Shown here: one piece after another, positions 38,586 through 57,158 of the stretch
Layout: every line of letters starts with the position of its first letter
Numbering within the stretch: the first letter of the stretch is position 1
Origin: a virus
Lineage: Duplodnaviria; Heunggongvirae; Uroviricota; Caudoviricetes
IMG/VR virus record: IMGVR_UViG_3300028805_000073
DNA: 60,395 nt
Direction: 5' to 3' (one strand)
The notes under the pieces: generated by a model
Told to the model about the DNA's origin: nothing
Database searches by the model: none
Seen by the model: the letters and a program-made list of their open reading frames with translations, nothing else
Made by a program: the position numbers and the translations under genes

Positions 38586-38590
38586 AATTG

Positions 38591-38666
38591 TTGGGGAAGC
38601 AGGATTCGAACCCGCGTAATGCAGAGATTTAGAGTCTCCAGTCTGAGGCCGCTCGACTATTCCCCA
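38591..38666 (-). tRNA. Amber suppressor tRNA, anticodon CUA, probable Gln identity
   Basis: TGGGGAA/TTCCCCA acceptor (U1-A72, G2-C71, G3-C70), anticodon arm GGAGA CT-CTA-AA TCTCT, T arm GCGGG TTCGAAT CCTGC. Confidence 0.92.
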
Positions 38667-46319: not shown

Positions 46320-46392
46320 TGGACAATGGTGTAATTGGTAACACACTACTCTTAAAAAAGTGGTATTATAGGTTCGAGTCCTATTTGTCTTC
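46320..46392 (+). tRNA. Degenerate tRNA with a Gln-like body and an 8-nt anticodon loop (CTTAAAAA); probably pseudo
   Basis: D stem GTGT/ACAC, CTACT/AGTGG stem, T arm ATAGG TTCGAGT CCTAT. The acceptor has mismatched terminal pairs. Confidence 0.55.
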
Positions 46393-49395: not shown

Positions 49396-49426
49396 TAGTT
49401 ACTTACAAATTTCATAATTTAAAAGA

Positions 49427-51277
49427 ATGATTACAGTAGAATTAAACAAAAAGAACGAAAACCCATTTTATGGGTGTAGTAACTGTTTGAAATTAGTCGA
49501 ACAAGCAGCAGGTAATATAACTTATTCTATGCTTGATGCAGCATGGAATGAAGTTGCACAAGATATCGAGAAGAGAAAGATGTTCTTTTCAGTACTATTC
49601 TCCATTGGAGATATTACTGGAAGACAGCATAATATCTTTAAAGGAAAGAAAGTAGACTCTGGTGGTAATGCCAATAGAGATGCTTTCAATACCATTTTCC
49701 ATTGGTTATGGAACAATAACAAAAATCAATTCATTAAGTTCATGAACGCTCAGCTATTCAATGAATATCAGTGTTTTGATACATTGTTCCAGAATCGTGT
49801 GCAAACCAAAGGATCAAAGGTGTTGAATGTATTCTCTGCCTATCGTGATCCAGAGTATAAGAAAGCACTTCTTAACTATGTGTATTCTGTTATCAATGGT
49901 ACCAATCCGTTTAACAAGATGCTCATAGCTAAGTTCTTGACCATTCCTCGTACATCTAAGAGACAAGGTCATAAGAAGATGTTTCCTGAAACTCTCAAAA
50001 TTATGAGAGAGAAGAAGGCTTTCTTAGAGGAACTTTCTAAGATGATGGGTTGGGAGATAGCTTTCTTAAAAGGTTATCGTGAATGGCGCAAACAGTACAA
50101 TGGAGAATTGGAATCTGTTCTCTTCTCTACTGGAAAGATTAACGAATTTACTACTAAGGATGAATTCCTTAGTTGGTTTGATAAGCTTCCAGCACAAGCA
50201 CGTTTCCGTGTGAAGAACCGTATTCTTTATTCTAAAGATGGAACTCAAACTATAAATACTAAGAAGAACGATGGTAAAAGTCTTACCATTGTTGCAGATA
50301 AGTATAAGTGGGCTAAGTTCCAGCCTTGGTTAAAGGAATGGGAAACTTACAAGGATAAGAAGCAAGAAGAGCAACGTATTCTTGAAGAGAAAGTTCGTCA
50401 AGGACAGGCATCTGATGAAGATAAGATTAGACTTCAGAAGGTGAAGAAGGAAGCAAAGGTTACAACTGGTGCTATTAACTTTAAAGAGTTGTATGATTCA
50501 ATTCTGAGAGGTAATGTAGACAAGTTAAAACTTGAATCATTCATCCAGAATAAAGTCAATTTGCCATACAATAGTTTGGTAATCATTGACGATTCTGGTT
50601 CAATGAACGGCTCTCCGTTCAGATTTGCGAAGTTTATCGCTTCAGTATGTCTTGTTAAGAATCCAGATGATGATGCTCGTAATCTAATTGGATTCTTTAA
50701 CAGTACTTCTCACTGGCACAGTTTCATTGATCAAACTTCTTCTCGAAGAAATAGTCTTCTTAGAACTCAAATTGCTCAAACTAATGCTAAGCCATTAGTT
50801 GATCCAACCTTGAGTTTCTATGATAACTACTTGAGAATTAGTAGTTTCTGTGAAGCAGTATATCAGGGTGGAGGAACATACATCACAAGTATTCCTAAAG
50901 GTTTAGAGTTTATCATTAAAGAGAATCCAGATTTCTTGGACACTCTTAAAGAGTATCCGATTTGGACAATCTTAAGCGATGGTGACTTGAACAATGATTG
51001 GAATGCTCGTAGTAGTATGCTACAATTCCAGAATGACTGCCGTCGTATTCTTGGTTATGTTCCATTCGTAGTGATGATTGAAATTTATCGCTATGGACAA
51101 CCTTCAATTAACCATTTTGAAGGAATTGAGAATATGATTTACATTCCTGGAAATCCTGCTCAGATTGAACAATTCTTAACCAACTTTAAGGATATGGATA
51201 TCTTTGATGTCTATACTCCATTGTTGAGTCTCTATAGAAGTAATAGGTATGAACTCGTGAGAGCAAATACCCTTTAA
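49427..51277 (+). CDS. TROVE/DUF2828-like protein with C-terminal vWA domain (Ro60-like architecture)
   Basis: MIDAS motif VIIDDSGSM plus later GGT and ILSDGD elements. The helical N-terminus has LF...DI...GG...R..F and AKF..PR elements of the kind seen in DUF2828/TROVE proteins. Family assignment is by recalled motifs. Confidence 0.7.
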   Translation: MITVELNKKNENPFYGCSNCLKLVEQAAGNITYSMLDAAWNEVAQDIEKRKMFFSVLFSIGDITGRQHNIFKGKKVDSGGNANRDAFNTIFHWLWNNNKNQFIKFMNAQLFNEYQCFDTLFQNRVQTKGSKVLNVFSAYRDPEYKKALLNYVYSVINGTNPFNKMLIAKFLTIPRTSKRQGHKKMFPETLKIMREKKAFLEELSKMMGWEIAFLKGYREWRKQYNGELESVLFSTGKINEFTTKDEFLSWFDKLPAQARFRVKNRILYSKDGTQTINTKKNDGKSLTIVADKYKWAKFQPWLKEWETYKDKKQEEQRILEEKVRQGQASDEDKIRLQKVKKEAKVTTGAINFKELYDSILRGNVDKLKLESFIQNKVNLPYNSLVIIDDSGSMNGSPFRFAKFIASVCLVKNPDDDARNLIGFFNSTSHWHSFIDQTSSRRNSLLRTQIAQTNAKPLVDPTLSFYDNYLRISSFCEAVYQGGGTYITSIPKGLEFIIKENPDFLDTLKEYPIWTILSDGDLNNDWNARSSMLQFQNDCRRILGYVPFVVMIEIYRYGQPSINHFEGIENMIYIPGNPAQIEQFLTNFKDMDIFDVYTPLLSLYRSNRYELVRANTL

Positions 51278-51300: not shown

Positions 51301-51331
51301 GACTAGAGGAGGTTCGATTCCTCCTCTAGTT
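51301..51331 (+). ncRNA. T-loop-capped 12-bp minihelix-like hairpin
   Basis: GACTAGAGGAGG TTCGATT CCTCCTCTAGTT. Confidence 0.5.
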
Positions 51332-51338
51332 TCTAATT

Positions 51339-51403
51339 AGGATACTTACAATATTAAATTGCTAGTAAGTAACCAACTTTTAATTGATTACATTTAGTAT
51401 CCT
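51339..51403 (+). ncRNA. Y-like cassette 1 (AGTA-loop hairpin plus Lys-UUU anticodon hairpin)
   Basis: AGGATACT/AGTATCCT closing stem; internal TTGCT-AGTA-AGTAA and CAA-CTTTTAA-TTG. Confidence 0.7.
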
Positions 51404-51434
51404 TTTTAACAAATTTTAAATTTGAAATAAAAAT

Positions 51435-52226
51435 ATGAAAAATAAATTAAATGTACTTTTAGCTTTAAGAGAAAAACTCGCAAATCGTTATGCACAAATG
51501 AATGGAGATTACACTTCATTCTTTAAAAATAAACAGGGAGCTTTTCAAGGAGTATTAAAAACTCACTCACCTTTAGATGGATATTCAATAGATCCAACTA
51601 AGGTAGCAAATACTAGAATTGTTACTACAGTAAATGAAAAAATGGATTGGTGGCTTAAGGAAGCATTAGAATATTTTAATACAGCTCTTGCTATTGAAGC
51701 GTCCAATGGTGAAGGTGCTCCTTCTGTAAAACTTGAATTTGAAGGAAAAGAATACGGACCATTTCCTGCTACTGTACTTCTCCGTCTTCGTGGCATTATT
51801 GAAAGTGATAAACTTGCACAGATGCTTGGTTCTATTCCAGTAAGAGAGGAGACAAAAGTTTGGTTTCCATCAACTGATGAGGATTACATAAAGAGAGGTA
51901 ACATTTTTGAAACTGAAATGCAATCTGGAGAAACTCGTACAACTGAGACTCATGATGAAATTTTAAAAGATTGTAATCTTGATCCTCAGCATCTTCCTTC
52001 TAATTATAAAGCAGTAGTTACTTCTGTTAAGAAAACTGTAAAGACTGGTGATTACACAACTCAGTTTTTCACTGGTGAATGGACACATCAGCAAAGAGCA
52101 AATCTTTTGAAGAGACGTTCAGAACTTCTTGATGCTATCAATGTTGCTTTACAGAAAGTAAATGACCGAGAGGCTACTGAATGTAAAGTTGATGAACTTC
52201 TTGGACATTTGATTTATGGACAATAA
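51435..52226 (+). CDS. Conserved phage hypothetical protein (263 aa)
   Basis: Track ORF located inside the TROVE-like/RNA locus. Confidence 0.8.
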   Translation: MKNKLNVLLALREKLANRYAQMNGDYTSFFKNKQGAFQGVLKTHSPLDGYSIDPTKVANTRIVTTVNEKMDWWLKEALEYFNTALAIEASNGEGAPSVKLEFEGKEYGPFPATVLLRLRGIIESDKLAQMLGSIPVREETKVWFPSTDEDYIKRGNIFETEMQSGETRTTETHDEILKDCNLDPQHLPSNYKAVVTSVKKTVKTGDYTTQFFTGEWTHQQRANLLKRRSELLDAINVALQKVNDREATECKVDELLGHLIYGQ

Positions 52227-52498: not shown

Positions 52499-52842
52499 AT
52501 TAGCTTTACAAATCCTAGATAATAAGCATTAATGTCGTGGTCAAAAGCATTAGTTAGGTTGATTACTGTATATTACTTACCTTGACGATTATAGCAATCC
52601 TAATATCGTAAGTTCGAATCTTACTAGCCCCTCATCACAGGCGTACTGAAGAAGGTTCAGCATTCCCGAAGTAAAATGTGTGAAATAGCTTTTATTAGAG
52701 GAGCTTCCCCGCAGAGGTTGTAATCTAATATTTGGGGCTATAGTATAGTGGTTAGTACATTAGGTTAGTTTAGCATTAGATTAAAGAGGTAAAAGGTAAT
52801 ATGCAAAAGTCTATGGATTAGTAAGACGGATTTGTCGCTAAT
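52499..52842 (+). ncRNA. Large rod-shaped RNA with a circularly permuted tRNA domain
   Basis: The tRNA 3' half (CCTAA, T arm 52608-24, TAGCCCC) precedes the 5' half (GGGGCTA 52734-40, D arm, TTAGG). Flanks pair as TGTATATTAC/GTAATATGCA, TTACCT/AGGTAA, ACAAATCC/GGATTTGT and ATTAGC/GCTAAT. Confidence 0.75.
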
Positions 52843-52922: not shown

Positions 52923-52999
52923 AGAGAGGTATGCGAATTGGTATAGCAGCTTAAAATTCTAGGTATAAGTGTTTGGGAGTTCGATTCTCTCCCTCTCTA
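52923..52999 (+). tRNA. Aberrant tRNA with Leu-type D arm and irregular anticodon arm (TTCTAGG; UAG or CUA reading ambiguous)
   Basis: Acceptor AGAGAGG/CCTCTCT and intact T arm. CTTA/TAAG encloses 12 nt. Confidence 0.5.
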
Positions 53000-53006
53000 C
53001 CTGATC

Positions 53007-53071
53007 AGGATACTTACAATACTAAAAAGCCAGTAGGCAATCAACTTTTAATTGATCATGTTTAGTATCCT
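53007..53071 (+). ncRNA. Y-like cassette 2 (AGTA-loop hairpin plus Lys-UUU anticodon hairpin)
   Basis: AGGATACT/AGTATCCT; GCC-AGTA-GGC; ATCAA-CTTTTAA-TTGAT. Confidence 0.75.
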
Positions 53072-53090: not shown

Positions 53091-53212
53091 AAGTTACTTA
53101 CAAAATAAAATATTAGCTTGCTAAGCCGCGTGTCATGGGTTCAAATCCCATCAAGGGACTATAAACTCCTTGTAGCTCAGTCTGGTAGAGCAACGTATTC
53201 ATTAAGTAACTT
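53091..53212 (+). ncRNA. Y-like cassette 3: permuted tRNA elbow (T arm, closed acceptor, D arm)
   Basis: AAGTTACTT/AAGTAACTT; ATGGG TTCAAAT CCCAT; CAAGGGA loop TCCTTG; GCTC AGTCTGGTA GAGC. Confidence 0.8.
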
Positions 53213-53322
53213 TTTAAAATTAAAAAATTATGGGAGAATTAGCTTTTATTTGTGGTTGTATGACATATTTGTGTGTTATGATAACCTTTATTTATATCAA
53301 ATTATGTAATAAATAATATAAT

Positions 53323-53436
53323 AAGATACTTACAAAACCATATTTAATGTTGGTTCGAATCCAACCTTCGTATTTACGATGTGGTGAAATTGGTATACAC
53401 GAGAAACTGTGGATTTCTTTATAAATTAAGTATCTT
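53323..53436 (+). ncRNA. Y-like cassette 4: permuted T-acceptor-D plus His(GUG) anticodon hairpin
   Basis: AAGATACTT/AAGTATCTT; GTTGG TTCGAAT CCAAC; TCGTA/TACGA; GTG..GGTATA CAC; AGAAA CT-GTG-GA TTTCT. Confidence 0.8.
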
Positions 53437-53442
53437 TTATAT

Positions 53443-53561
53443 GCAGGAGATAGTGTAATTGGTAACACGACGTAGTTATTAGTATCATACGATACTTACA
53501 ATACCAATTAACATTGCTTTTGGTGCCGTTAATGAGTGGTTCGAGTCCCTCTCTCCTGCCA
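53443..53561 (+). ncRNA. Cassette 5: tRNA-Gln(UUG)-like RNA with a 43-nt insertion carrying the closing stem in permuted form
   Basis: Normal-order tRNA. The anticodon stem ACG|GC / GCCGT is split by 53473-53515, which contains AGTATC-ATAC-GATACTTACAA. Confidence 0.75.
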
Positions 53562-54341: not shown

Positions 54342-54396
54342 AAGATACTTACAAATTTTTATTATAATTTATAATGTTGGAATAAATAAGTATCTT
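54342..54396 (+). ncRNA. Y-like cassette 6 (minimal)
   Basis: AAGATACTT ACAA ... AAGTATCTT followed by a T run. Confidence 0.65.
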
Positions 54397-54487: not shown

Positions 54488-54506
54488 CATGGACTGAGGA
54501 TAACTT

Positions 54507-54993
54507 AATTAAATTTGAGTGCTATGGCGAGAAATCCCATAGTAGAATCTCCCTAAAACGGTGGAAGTCCTTTTAGCCCTGATATATCAGGAGGATTTTC
54601 TGCACTGAACAATCGCAGAACACTAACCAATAATGTGTAAGGATAATACCGTGCTAAATTGATAATCTTAGTAGCATTTATATGTGAAAAGCGAATGTTG
54701 AGTAGTAGAACGGCTACATTATCATAAATGTGTAGAGGATATAGAGGAGATACCTAAGTTGAAATTTATGTTAAAGCAGAGTATAGAAACTGCTACATAT
54801 GAGATATAGTTTACATAAGAACCTATTCCCTCAAAAGGTTTAAACCCTAACATAATCTTGCAAGAATTTCAATATGGTAATAATATATTCCAGACCACAA
54901 CAAATTTAACGCATCATCGGTTGGATGCCTGGGGACATGTGCCTCGTATATACGTTATTGTTAAGTTTGGCTATGGTAACATAGTGTGGTAGG
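54507..54993 (+). mobile_element. Group I intron (487 nt, no ORF) lacking a recognisable tRNA 5' exon
   Basis: P1 ACUU|AA/UUGAGU with a U.G pair; P3 ATCTCC/GGAGAT; P4 ACGGT/ACCGT; P7 GAGGATA/TATTCC; GTAA-capped P9; terminal G. Confidence 0.8.
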
Positions 54994-55044
54994 AAAATCC
55001 AATGTCCAGTAATGGACGTGGGGATTCAATTTCCCCTAGAGCTA
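54994..55044 (+). pseudogene. Orphan 3' half of a class II tRNA (Leu-UAA type)
   Basis: AAAA TCCAA, variable arm GTCC/GGAC, T arm GGGGA TTCAATT TCCCC, acceptor strand TAGAGCT-A. No complementary 5' half was found nearby. Confidence 0.7.
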
Positions 55045-55189: not shown

Positions 55190-55254
55190 AGGATACTTAC
55201 AATAGATAATTAAATGCGATAAATAAATATTTATAGGAATGTTCTAAGTATCCT
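55190..55254 (+). ncRNA. Y-like cassette 7 (minimal)
   Basis: AGGATACTT ACAA ... AAGTATCCT. Confidence 0.65.
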
Positions 55255-55373: not shown

Positions 55374-55499
55374 AAGTTACTTACAAAATTATTAATAATA
55401 TTATACTAAAATTAGTATCAATGGTTCGAATCCATTATTTTCCACCATATTTTTTGGGAGATTAGCATAGTGGTTTAATGCAATATTTTTAAGTAACTT
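55374..55499 (+). ncRNA. Y-like cassette 8: permuted tRNA elbow with internal ACCA and a G3.U70 pair
   Basis: AAGTTACTT/AAGTAACTT; T arm 55420-36; ATTTTCC-A-CCA (55437-47), linker, GGGAGAT (55456-62); GCAT/ATGC D stem. Confidence 0.8.
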
Positions 55500-55801: not shown

Positions 55802-55908
55802 AAGATACTTACAAAACTAAAATGATGTTTAGTTCATTTGGTTAGAACGATTTCTTTTCAAGAAATAGTAACAAGTTCGATTCTTGTAATGTCAACCAGA
55901 AGTATCTT
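55802..55908 (+). ncRNA. Y-like cassette 9 enclosing a complete tRNA-Glu(UUC) (55823-55898, CCA end)
   Basis: AAGATACTT/AAGTATCTT flanks TGATGTT...ATTTC TT-TTC-AA GAAAT...AATGTCA-A-CCA. Confidence 0.8.
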
Positions 55909-56263: not shown

Positions 56264-56347
56264 AAGATACTTACAAATACTTTTAATATTTTATTAGACA
56301 TCATATGTAGTATCAAGTTTATTAATCTTAATAATCTTAAGTATCTT
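56264..56347 (+). ncRNA. Y-like cassette 10 with Lys-UUU anticodon hairpin
   Basis: AAGATACTT/AAGTATCTT; AAATA-CTTTTAA-TATTT at 56275-91. Confidence 0.7.
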
Positions 56348-56352
56348 TTAAT

Positions 56353-57158
56353 GCTCCCTTAGCTCAGTGGATAGAGCAACTGCCTTCAGTATATTTCTGT
56401 GAAGAAATAAACAGGAGTGCTATGGCGAGAAATCCCATAGTAGAATCTCCCTAAAACGGTGGAAGTCCTAGTTAAAATTGAAGACCCTTAGTAGCCTATA
56501 GGCGAAAGTGGAATACGGCTTTAATGGCTTGCAGCAAACGTAAACTGCATCTGAAACAATAAGGAAGGATAATACCGTGCTAAATTGAGAAACAGTAGAA
56601 GTCCTTTTAATACTGATAATATAAATTCATTTGTATATAAAATTTATGTTAAGATAAATATAAAACTTTTGAATAAAATAGCGTCTTGGCTATATCCAAG
56701 CAATAATATCAGTAACACTAACCAATAATGTGTAAGGATGATTTAGTACAAATAGTTCAAATGGAAATAGAACGCTCATAAAAGTGTAGAGGATATAGAG
56801 GAGATATGAGGGAAATATATTGAATACCCTCACATTCTATTCAGACGTATCTGATAAGAATGCCTAAGTTGAAATTAGTGAGGGAAGGTCACAGTAGTCC
56901 TGTTATAAAACATCGGAAAACCTCCTTGCTTACTTGCAAGAATTTCAATATGGTAAAGATGTATTCCAGACCACAACAAACAAACAATCGCTGAGGGTAA
57001 CAGAGTGACTATCGTAGTTACAAGGCAAATCCTGTAAGTCAAAAGCCTAAGCCTTCTTAGGGATAAACATAAAATCGGAGGCTAAAATTTGTTTGGCTAT
57101 GGTAACATAGTGTGGTAAGCTAAGCAGTAGGTCACAGGTTCGAATCCTGTAGGGAGTA
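56353..57158 (+). tRNA. trnR: tRNA-Arg(UCU) split by a group I intron: join(56353..56386, 57120..57158)
   Basis: The spliced product has ACTGC CT-TCT-AA GCAGT, acceptor GCTCCCT/AGGGAGT, and canonical D and T arms. Confidence 0.9.
56387..57119 (+). mobile_element. Group I intron (733 nt, no ORF) after U34 of tRNA-Arg(UCU)
   Basis: CUU|C pairs with IGS GGAG through a U.G pair. The core is nearly identical to the 54507-54993 intron and ends in G. Confidence 0.9.

Follow-up and report, generated by a model that had tools for sequence, protein, structure and literature searches.

Introduction

Particles of Ro60 and Y RNA have been described in animals, in some bacteria and in a small number of phages. 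The published cases closest to the locus described here are the YrlA RNAs of bacteria and mycobacteriophages (PMC4201824) and the Ro60 protein of Thermus phage phiLo with its RNAs Yrl1 and Yrl2 (PMC12135203). YrlA RNAs are tRNA mimics that are encoded on the same strand as Ro60 and less than 4 kb from it, in bacteria as well as in mycobacteriophages (Chen et al. [quoted passage not shown] The phiLo Ro60 binds two neighbouring Y-like RNAs, Yrl1 and Yrl2 (PMC12135203; PDB 9KOP, 9L5Y), which lie upstream of the gene and contain CGAA bulges, without being described as mimics of tRNA (PMC12135203).

The present analysis concerns a window of 60,395 nucleotides (the whole stretch of DNA under study) from a virus of the Caudoviricetes, IMG/VR record IMGVR_UViG_3300028805_000073. 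Two RNA genes in this window, designated E1 and E2, together with a neighbouring Ro60-like gene, most likely represent a variant of the known Ro60/Y-RNA partnership.

Results

A plus-strand tRNA array in a recoded phage

The window consists of AT-rich DNA of a gut or rumen-type phage, and its terminase is about 27% identical to the terminases of crAss-like Bacteroides phages. When TAG is read as sense, long open reading frames extend across the minus-strand half, one of them of 2256 aa. In-frame TAG is frequent in the structural genes on the minus strand (window 1-36800) and occurs hardly at all in the plus-strand genes that surround the RNA array (36900-60395), and two suppressor tRNAs with the anticodon CUA are encoded at 38590-38666 and 52923-53001. 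Judged by these sequence features, the phage is TAG-recoded and distantly related to crAss-like phages. Its relatives are complete, metagenome-derived genomes of 176-183 kb. E1 and E2 sit in a tRNA gene array on the plus strand, at 52.5-57.5 kb.

Two other peculiarities of the plus-strand tRNA genes were observed. A tRNA with the four-base anticodon UAAA was called by ARAGORN at 46320-46392 (Rfam tRNA, 47.6 bits), and for its counterpart in the related locus L003 the call gives an anticodon of two bases. Either the anticodon loop is odd or this may be a tRNA of the frameshift type. Two long insertions in tRNA genes, at 54490-55040 and 56400-57120, have long stretches in common that are identical (starting, for example, at 54519 and at 56418), and their appearance is that of group I-type introns without an ORF; Rfam gave no family at threshold for either insertion.

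Anatomy of E1 and E2

53091-53212, plus strand: E1, permuted tRNA-like RNA of class I (evidence: sequence, YrlA match, 16-member alignment A2)
53323-53436, plus strand: E2, permuted tRNA-like RNA of class II (evidence: sequence, YrlA match, 33-member alignment A3)

Both RNAs are enclosed by a perfect terminal helix of 10 bp (AAGWUACUUA / UAAGUAWCUU) followed by ACAA (CAA after AAGWTACTTA), and both share the T loop TTCRAAT, acceptor strands of 7 nt, U8 and N9 ahead of the D arm, and a T run behind the closing strand. The elements of E1 follow in the order terminal helix, ACAA, mini anticodon-like hairpin, T arm, closed acceptor, D arm, terminal helix. Its outer 5' strand (53091-53100) is followed by ACAA and by the mini hairpin (53115-53126; loop UUGCUAA, stem of only 2-3 bp), the T arm (53135-53151), the acceptor (3' strand 53152-58, loop 53159-65, 5' strand 53166-72), U8/A9 and a D arm with GG (53175-53191), before the outer 3' strand (53203-53212) leads into a U run. 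In E2, the outer strands (53323-32 and 53427-36) enclose a T arm (53349-65), an acceptor (53366-72 / 53375-81) closed by the 2-nt loop UU, a D arm (53384-53400) and a full anticodon arm at 53402-18 (AGAAA CUGUGGA UUUCU, with a 5-bp stem, a 7-nt loop and GUG at 53409-11). The strand break of E2 corresponds to the variable-loop position.

Neither RNA has a CCA, E2 also lacks a discriminator base, and neither was called as a tRNA by ARAGORN or by the Rfam tRNA model. Single-sequence minimum-free-energy folds contain the outer helix in E1, E2 and a third unit, E3 (z-scores of -1.5 to -2.8), and give a full cloverleaf-like body for E3 only, which is weak evidence by itself. The order of T arm, hairpin-closed acceptor and D arm with GG, which an earlier sequence-only reading had proposed for both elements, was located in each of them, and the complete anticodon arm of E2 proved to be real and structurally conserved (RNAalifold, 33 members). 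That reading had counted two such mimics; both stand, and two more, at 55374-55499 and about 52599-52765, had been overlooked.

Between E1 and E2 lies a 28-codon open reading frame (53230-53316, plus strand). The peptide that it encodes (MGELAFICGCMTYLCVMITFIYIKLCNK) is hydrophobic and rich in Cys; protein-level conservation is seen in the related locus L004, but in other relatives the frame is missing or replaced.

Conservation of the fold and of the tRNA core

About 90 loci in all were compared, comprising 8 viral and 69 metagenomic loci around homologues of the 616-aa gene described below, together with loci found by a DNA pattern. A script was applied that accepted only sequences combining T arm, closed acceptor and D arm with the outer helix, and 66 non-redundant units, from 75 distinct sequences, passed the length and motif filters. 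About half of the 66 belong to class I (E1 and E3 type), with no anticodon arm after the D arm; the other half form class II (E2 type), in which a perfect 5-bp arm with a 7-nt loop stands at this place, as against about 2% expected by chance.

RNAalifold on MAFFT alignments recovered the outer, T, acceptor and D helices in the E1 family (16 members), with 12 of 25 pairs doubly changed, and the same four helices plus the anticodon arm in class II (33 members), with 20 of 25 pairs doubly changed. Standard pairs fill 97.6-97.7% of the alignment cells, compared with 29-50% after a displacement of the partners by 1-3 columns; the paired percentages are inflated by the pairing filter that chose the units, while the compensatory changes and the slid controls are independent of it. 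The observed covariation was reached in none of 500 shuffles. Features outside the filter also follow the tRNA core: 65 of 66 units have U8 and all 66 have A14. For the 15:48 pair, formed by position 15 with the base that immediately precedes the T stem, 56 of 66 units show G:C or A:U, versus 29 expected if the positions were independent. On the 5' side, the block UAAGWUACUUACAAWA is conserved in 65 units, and no conserved sequence was found upstream of it in the units compared; the 3' strand of the helix usually precedes a U run.

The sequence-only reading had named decayed tRNA fragments without conservation as the finding that would speak against it. Conservation was found instead, and the decayed-fragment reading is rejected because compensatory changes occur in all helices. 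By comparative sequence analysis, E1 and E2 are confirmed as conserved structured RNA genes.

A Ro60-like protein encoded upstream

49427-51277, plus strand: gene of a 616-aa Ro60-like protein with an N-terminal helical ring and a C-terminal vWA domain (evidence: alignment A1, AF2, Foldseek, VIA)

This gene ends 1.8 kb upstream of E1, on the same strand. In the C-terminal third of its product the MIDAS motif DxSxS...T...D (D388, S390, S392, T484, D518) is invariant among 49 diverse homologues (A1). The AF2 model is confident (pLDDT 87.7). In a Foldseek search against the PDB, the top 10 matches are all Ro60/TROVE/Rsr structures aligned over the whole length with probability 1.0, and in VIA-align only Ro/TROVE chains span both domains (Z 10-12, 367-409 residues), the top match being phiLo Ro60 (9KOP; Z 11.8, 398 residues). 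The TM-scores to Ro60 are low (0.23-0.45), and among the AlphaFold DB clusters DUF7788/DUF2828 rank best, while TROVE comes further down. Taken together, these fold matches, low TM-scores and clusters point to a divergent member of the Ro60-like fold and not to a clear orthologue.

At the sequence level, the protein does not match Pfam TROVE (PF05731) even at E 10, nor any other Pfam family, and its profile reaches Ro60/TROVE entries of the PDB only at E 0.09-2.5, around the MIDAS motif. A tblastn search found no match in 50,697 GenBank phage records, a distant-homologue query returned nothing, and a literature search for Ro60 in crAss-like phages gave nothing relevant. As modelled, the 616-aa protein is Ro60-like by fold only. 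The locus resembles that of Thermus phage phiLo in combining a phage-encoded Ro60 fold with neighbouring small RNAs that have a terminal stem, but the sequence identity of the two proteins is about 12%, and the RNAs here lie downstream of the gene, lack the CGAA motif and are tRNA-shaped.

Two features directly downstream of the gene are recorded here. A perfect 10-bp minihelix with a T loop (51303-51329, plus strand), equivalent to a T arm stacked on an acceptor-like stem, begins 26 nt after the Ro60-like stop codon and has a counterpart in L004; it may serve as a tRNA-like signal for processing the 3' end of the mRNA. At 51435-52226 (plus strand), directly after a handle cassette, lies the gene of a DUF7873 protein (Pfam E 6e-31), a family with mostly viral members.

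Linkage of the helix to the Ro60-like gene and a candidate operator

The handle block, UAAG-N-Y-ACUUACAA-W-A, is the sole conserved sequence on the 5' side of the units. Three complete relatives of 176-183 kb have 25 motif copies between them, and 24 of these are found on a single strand of the 8-11 kb that begin with the Ro60-like gene; the reversed pattern, used as a control, has 0 copies in the same genomes. Wherever at least 3.5 kb of downstream sequence was available (26 of 26 loci), 3-12 copies follow the Ro60-like gene, down to 47% protein identity. A separate copy precedes the gene itself:

49397-49484, plus strand: helix motif copy (AGUUACUUACAA) before the Ro60-like start codon, with its downstream partner; candidate autoregulatory operator (evidence: covariation of the partner)

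The copy at 49397 pairs with AGUAACU inside the coding sequence, at 49478-49484. Across relatives, the motif lies 3-45 nt upstream of the start codon, with a complementary partner 20-55 nt inside the coding sequence in about 40 of 45 distinct motif-bearing gene starts, and the partner changes with the motif (AGTTACT/AGTAACT versus TGTTACTT/AAGTAACA). Because the partner pairs and covaries, the motif is transcribed and pairs as RNA, and is not a promoter only.

A phage-specific promoter is nonetheless what GATACTTACAA brings to mind at first sight, since the conserved block, at about 16 nt, has a length similar to that of promoters of single-subunit RNA polymerases and stands closely upstream of the Ro60-like start codon; the downstream complement would then be coincidental or act at the DNA level. 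Such a reading does not account for the perfect covariation of the partner at four variable positions of the helix, seen at spacings of 40-120 nt, nor for the equivalent, loop-closed helix inside tRNA genes, nor for a motif with nearly all its copies within one 8-11 kb stretch of a 176-183 kb genome. In view of the covarying partner, the confinement to a single locus and the lack of conservation upstream of the motif, the promoter reading was rejected as highly improbable. As a helix that encloses a start codon, the structure resembles the translational operators of RNA-binding proteins, and by this analogy we infer that it provides the strongest indirect support for binding of the helix by the Ro60-like protein.

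Further units and other settings of the shared helix

55374-55499, plus strand: E3, third permuted tRNA-like RNA (evidence: the minimum-free-energy fold gives the whole architecture)
52599-52765, plus strand: fourth permuted tRNA-like unit (evidence: sequence; compensatory acceptor AUCGCCC/GGGCGAU in the L004 orthologue)
53443-53561, plus strand: normal-order tRNA-like gene with an inserted helix (evidence: sequence; 50 distinct cases in relatives of a cassette inside a tRNA)
55802-55908, plus strand: complete tRNA-Glu(UUC) within the helix strands, which form a leader-trailer helix
57259-57372, plus strand: complete tRNA-Ile(UAU) within the helix strands
51339-51404, plus strand: cassette without a tRNA-like body, the helix enclosing small hairpins

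The terminal helix of E3 is that of E1, its acceptor loop begins with ACCA, and a variable-arm-like hairpin stands ahead of its T arm. An alanine identity of E3 (G3:U70, A73, CCA) was considered and rejected, as it is not retained in relatives. The fourth unit has the order T arm, acceptor 3' strand UAGCCCC, 103-nt linker, GGGGCUA, D arm. Body-less cassettes similar to that at 51339-51404 occur at 53007-53071, 54342-54396, 55190-55254 and 56264-56347.

At 53443-53561, the helix, closed by the 4-nt loop AUAC, is inserted together with ACAA in the 5' strand of the anticodon stem, and taking out 43 nt restores a 5-bp anticodon stem. E1 is an exact circular permutation of this type, with a proximal stem ACG/CGU, the handle and then the 2-3 bp hairpin with its 7-nt anticodon-like loop. 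In the 50 cases from relatives the closed helix is found either at the D loop or at the anticodon stem, so that the handle exits where extra arms leave the tRNA L shape intact. Such an exit is in keeping with a retained protein-binding arm and is, to the same degree, reminiscent of the introns and permuted genes of Archaea and red algae. Since complete tRNAs are flanked by the helix as well and some tRNA genes have it in their interior, it could be a processing or splicing signal.

The wide use of the helix leads to the question whether it might be an element of transcript architecture only (a stalk for leader-trailer processing, an insulator or a U-run terminator, for instance) that would serve all RNA genes of the array, with no relation to the Ro60-like protein and with the permuted units as by-products of recombination. 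The U run that usually follows the 3' strand would suit this, as would the helix around ordinary tRNAs and around 'empty' loops, and consecutive units abut in some relatives. By-products would be expected to decay, yet five helices and tertiary pairs are kept by compensatory change across a divergence of the Ro60-like protein that reaches 47% identity. Moreover, most of the ordinary tRNAs of the array do without the helix, and the motif is confined to the vicinity of the Ro60-like gene and placed on its start codon as well. We consider a purely architectural role improbable.

Anticodon turnover and tRNA-type features

In class II the structure of the anticodon arm is conserved and the triplet is not. 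At least 18 different triplets occur among the class II units, and orthologues of E2 that are 81-92% identical outside the triplet and share the same sealed acceptor carry GTG, GTA, GCA or CGA. Over the 33 class II units the anticodon columns have an entropy of 1.7-1.8 bits, compared with 0.33 bits for U33 (present in 31 of 33) and 0.61 bits for the purine at position 37 (33 of 33). The near-constant flanks of a variable triplet indicate that the arm is selected as a shape, while the triplet, as far as alignments indicate, is either free or diversifying. The His(GUG) identity that had been assigned to E2 is therefore meaningless, given that GUG is not conserved among orthologues.

The same turnover was seen in normal-order tRNAs wrapped by the handle that start with ACATTAGCTCAT (L001 11938-12040, L002 12428-12520, L003 14112-14215, L005, L006, L049 and others), whose anticodon varies between related phages (GAT, GCT, TTC, GTT, TGT, GGT, GAG); anticodon turnover thus appears general to the handle-bearing tRNA-like genes.

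Of the 66 units, 17 have NCCA directly after the 7-bp acceptor 3' strand, where chance would give about 1, so that cleavage to two-piece, CCA-ended molecules is possible for the family. With the processing known for the YrlA of M. smegmatis, two-piece forms become plausible for some members. The sequence-only reading had concluded that the closed acceptor blocks aminoacylation of the two RNAs as transcribed; E1 and E2 themselves lack CCA, and cleavable forms are possible for the relatives with NCCA. The NCCA loops, together with the fully canonical anticodon loops, hint at a tRNA-like biochemistry beyond that of a passive mimic.

The permuted, split and intron-bearing tRNA genes of Cyanidioschyzon merolae and Archaea involve a bulge-helix-bulge motif, a splicing endonuclease and RtcB. 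As in those genes, the 3' half is encoded here before the 5' half with a complementary acceptor, the termini pair in a helix equal to the 'intron' helix of normal-order genes, and insertions occur at non-canonical positions. The units might accordingly be true circularly permuted or intron-bearing tRNA genes, with the helix directing splicing or assembly: the acceptor would be opened by RNase P together with 3' trimming or the addition of CCA, and the product would be re-ligated or would serve in translation as a two-piece tRNA. Several observations would be explained in this way, namely the excess of NCCA, the canonical 7-nt anticodon loops of class II with U33 and purine 37, and the same helix in the D loop or anticodon stem of normal-order tRNA genes, including 53443-53561, where the restoration of the anticodon stem follows the pattern of archaeal and red-algal introns and permuted genes. 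In addition, 11 of 12 class II anticodons have no counterpart among the locus's ordinary tRNAs, but this non-redundancy is not above chance (about 9.4 of 12 expected).

Other observations weigh against functional tRNAs. E2 and its orthologues have a 2-nt acceptor loop with neither discriminator base nor CCA, the anticodon-like hairpin of E1 has just 2-3 bp, the G3:U70 pair of E3 is lost in relatives, and identical acceptor and D arms carry the anticodons of four amino acids; in contrast to the genes of C. merolae and Archaea, anticodons are not tied to the rest of the body. RtcB, which belongs to those systems, is absent from all three complete relatives (0/3), and an Rnl2-type ligase is present in one of the three; the host could supply a ligase. 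A helix around the start codon of a protein is left unexplained by a tRNA splice signal. On balance, genuine permuted tRNA genes seem unlikely. A literature search for permuted tRNA genes in phages gave nothing relevant.

A bacterial precedent for a permuted tRNA-like domain is provided by the two-piece tmRNAs that alphaproteobacteria and cyanobacteria possess. There the CCA end is encoded first, then a linker and then the acceptor 5' strand, and host enzymes carry out the maturation. Unlike tmRNA, the units have no tag reading frame, no pseudoknots and no conserved alanine identity. Among the related loci, ARAGORN called a tmRNA with a tag peptide in L023 (11585-11949), and Rfam gave a weak tmRNA match in L086 (1020-1143).

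Comparison with YrlA RNAs

The YrlA covariance model (Rfam RF02553) aligns with both elements end to end, with 41.9 bits for E1 (E 6e-8) and 24.8 bits for E2 (E 0.006) in a 600-nt scan, both below the gathering score of 69. A further 13 full-length matches, with 30.6-49 bits, were obtained in ten related loci, largely in units of the E1 family. E1 and E2 resemble YrlA in that the tRNA-like domain consists of a T arm, an acceptor-like hairpin and a D arm inside a stem of the 5' and 3' ends, in the covarying 15:48 pair, and in their position on the same strand as a Ro60-type gene and less than 4 kb from it, E1 starting 1,814 nt after the Ro60-like stop codon; this arrangement recurs in 26 of 26 loci.

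They differ from YrlA in several respects. The 5' motif is ACUUACAA instead of GNCGAAN0-1G, and no CGAA occurs near the 5' end of either RNA (the sole CGAA of E2 lies in the T loop, and E1 has none). Many copies are present per genome (at least 12 helix copies here), one class has a canonical anticodon arm that is complete and whose triplet is hypervariable, whole tRNAs are wrapped by the same handle, which is found as an insertion in tRNA genes too, and the partner protein is too divergent for Pfam TROVE. The YrlA-type order put forward earlier is thus borne out by the architecture and by the Ro60-like neighbour, but not by the gathering score or the 5' motif. Since neither the gathering score nor the GNCGAA motif is reached, E1 and E2 are placed as a Ro60/Y-RNA variant and not as YrlA members; that they 'work like YrlA' in architecture and genomic context is supported by the sequence comparisons.

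Discussion

It is probable that E1 and E2 are Y-RNA-like tRNA mimics carried on a handle that is bound by the Ro60-like protein. They would then be noncoding RNA genes of a phage Ro60-type ribonucleoprotein, with two modules per RNA. The handle would be the 9-10 bp helix formed by the RNA's own ends, 5' UAAG-N-Y-ACUU followed by unpaired ACAA(W)A, and the ring of the Ro60-like protein would bind it in the way that Ro60 binds the terminal stem of Y RNAs. The same protein may repress its own mRNA through the operator copy. The body would be tRNA-shaped and circularly permuted, with the T arm, the hairpin-closed acceptor and the D arm in this order, followed in E2 by the anticodon arm. As a mimic, it might engage factors that bind tRNA, such as modification and processing enzymes, nucleases or PNPase-type partners, rather than take part in decoding. 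A mimic is preferred to a decoder because E1 lacks a proper anticodon stem, and because the acceptor of E2 is sealed and without CCA while its anticodon drifts.

A different role for the Ro60-like protein can be envisaged, to which we assign a rather low probability. The helix would mark permuted, split and insertion-bearing tRNA genes of the phage, and the Ro60-like ring would hold it during the opening of the acceptor by RNase P and 3' processing of the host, giving two-piece or re-joined tRNAs with rapidly swappable anticodons. If true, this would be the first permuted or split tRNA system outside Archaea and eukaryotes, and anticodons swapped between phage lineages would supply decoding or bait host anticodon nucleases.

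For the favoured reading of E1 and E2 as handle-bound mimics, the locus adds to the Ro60/Y-RNA particles a phage lineage, abundant in gut and rumen metagenomes, in which a dozen RNAs share one conserved handle next to a very divergent Ro60-like protein. The tRNA body occurs in every topological arrangement, whether permuted, wrapped by the handle or with the handle inserted, and the anticodon is the part that evolves fastest. The family thereby offers a natural series of variants for testing what purpose a tRNA mimic serves on a Ro60 particle, and it raises the possibility that phages use handle RNAs in the conflict over host tRNAs.
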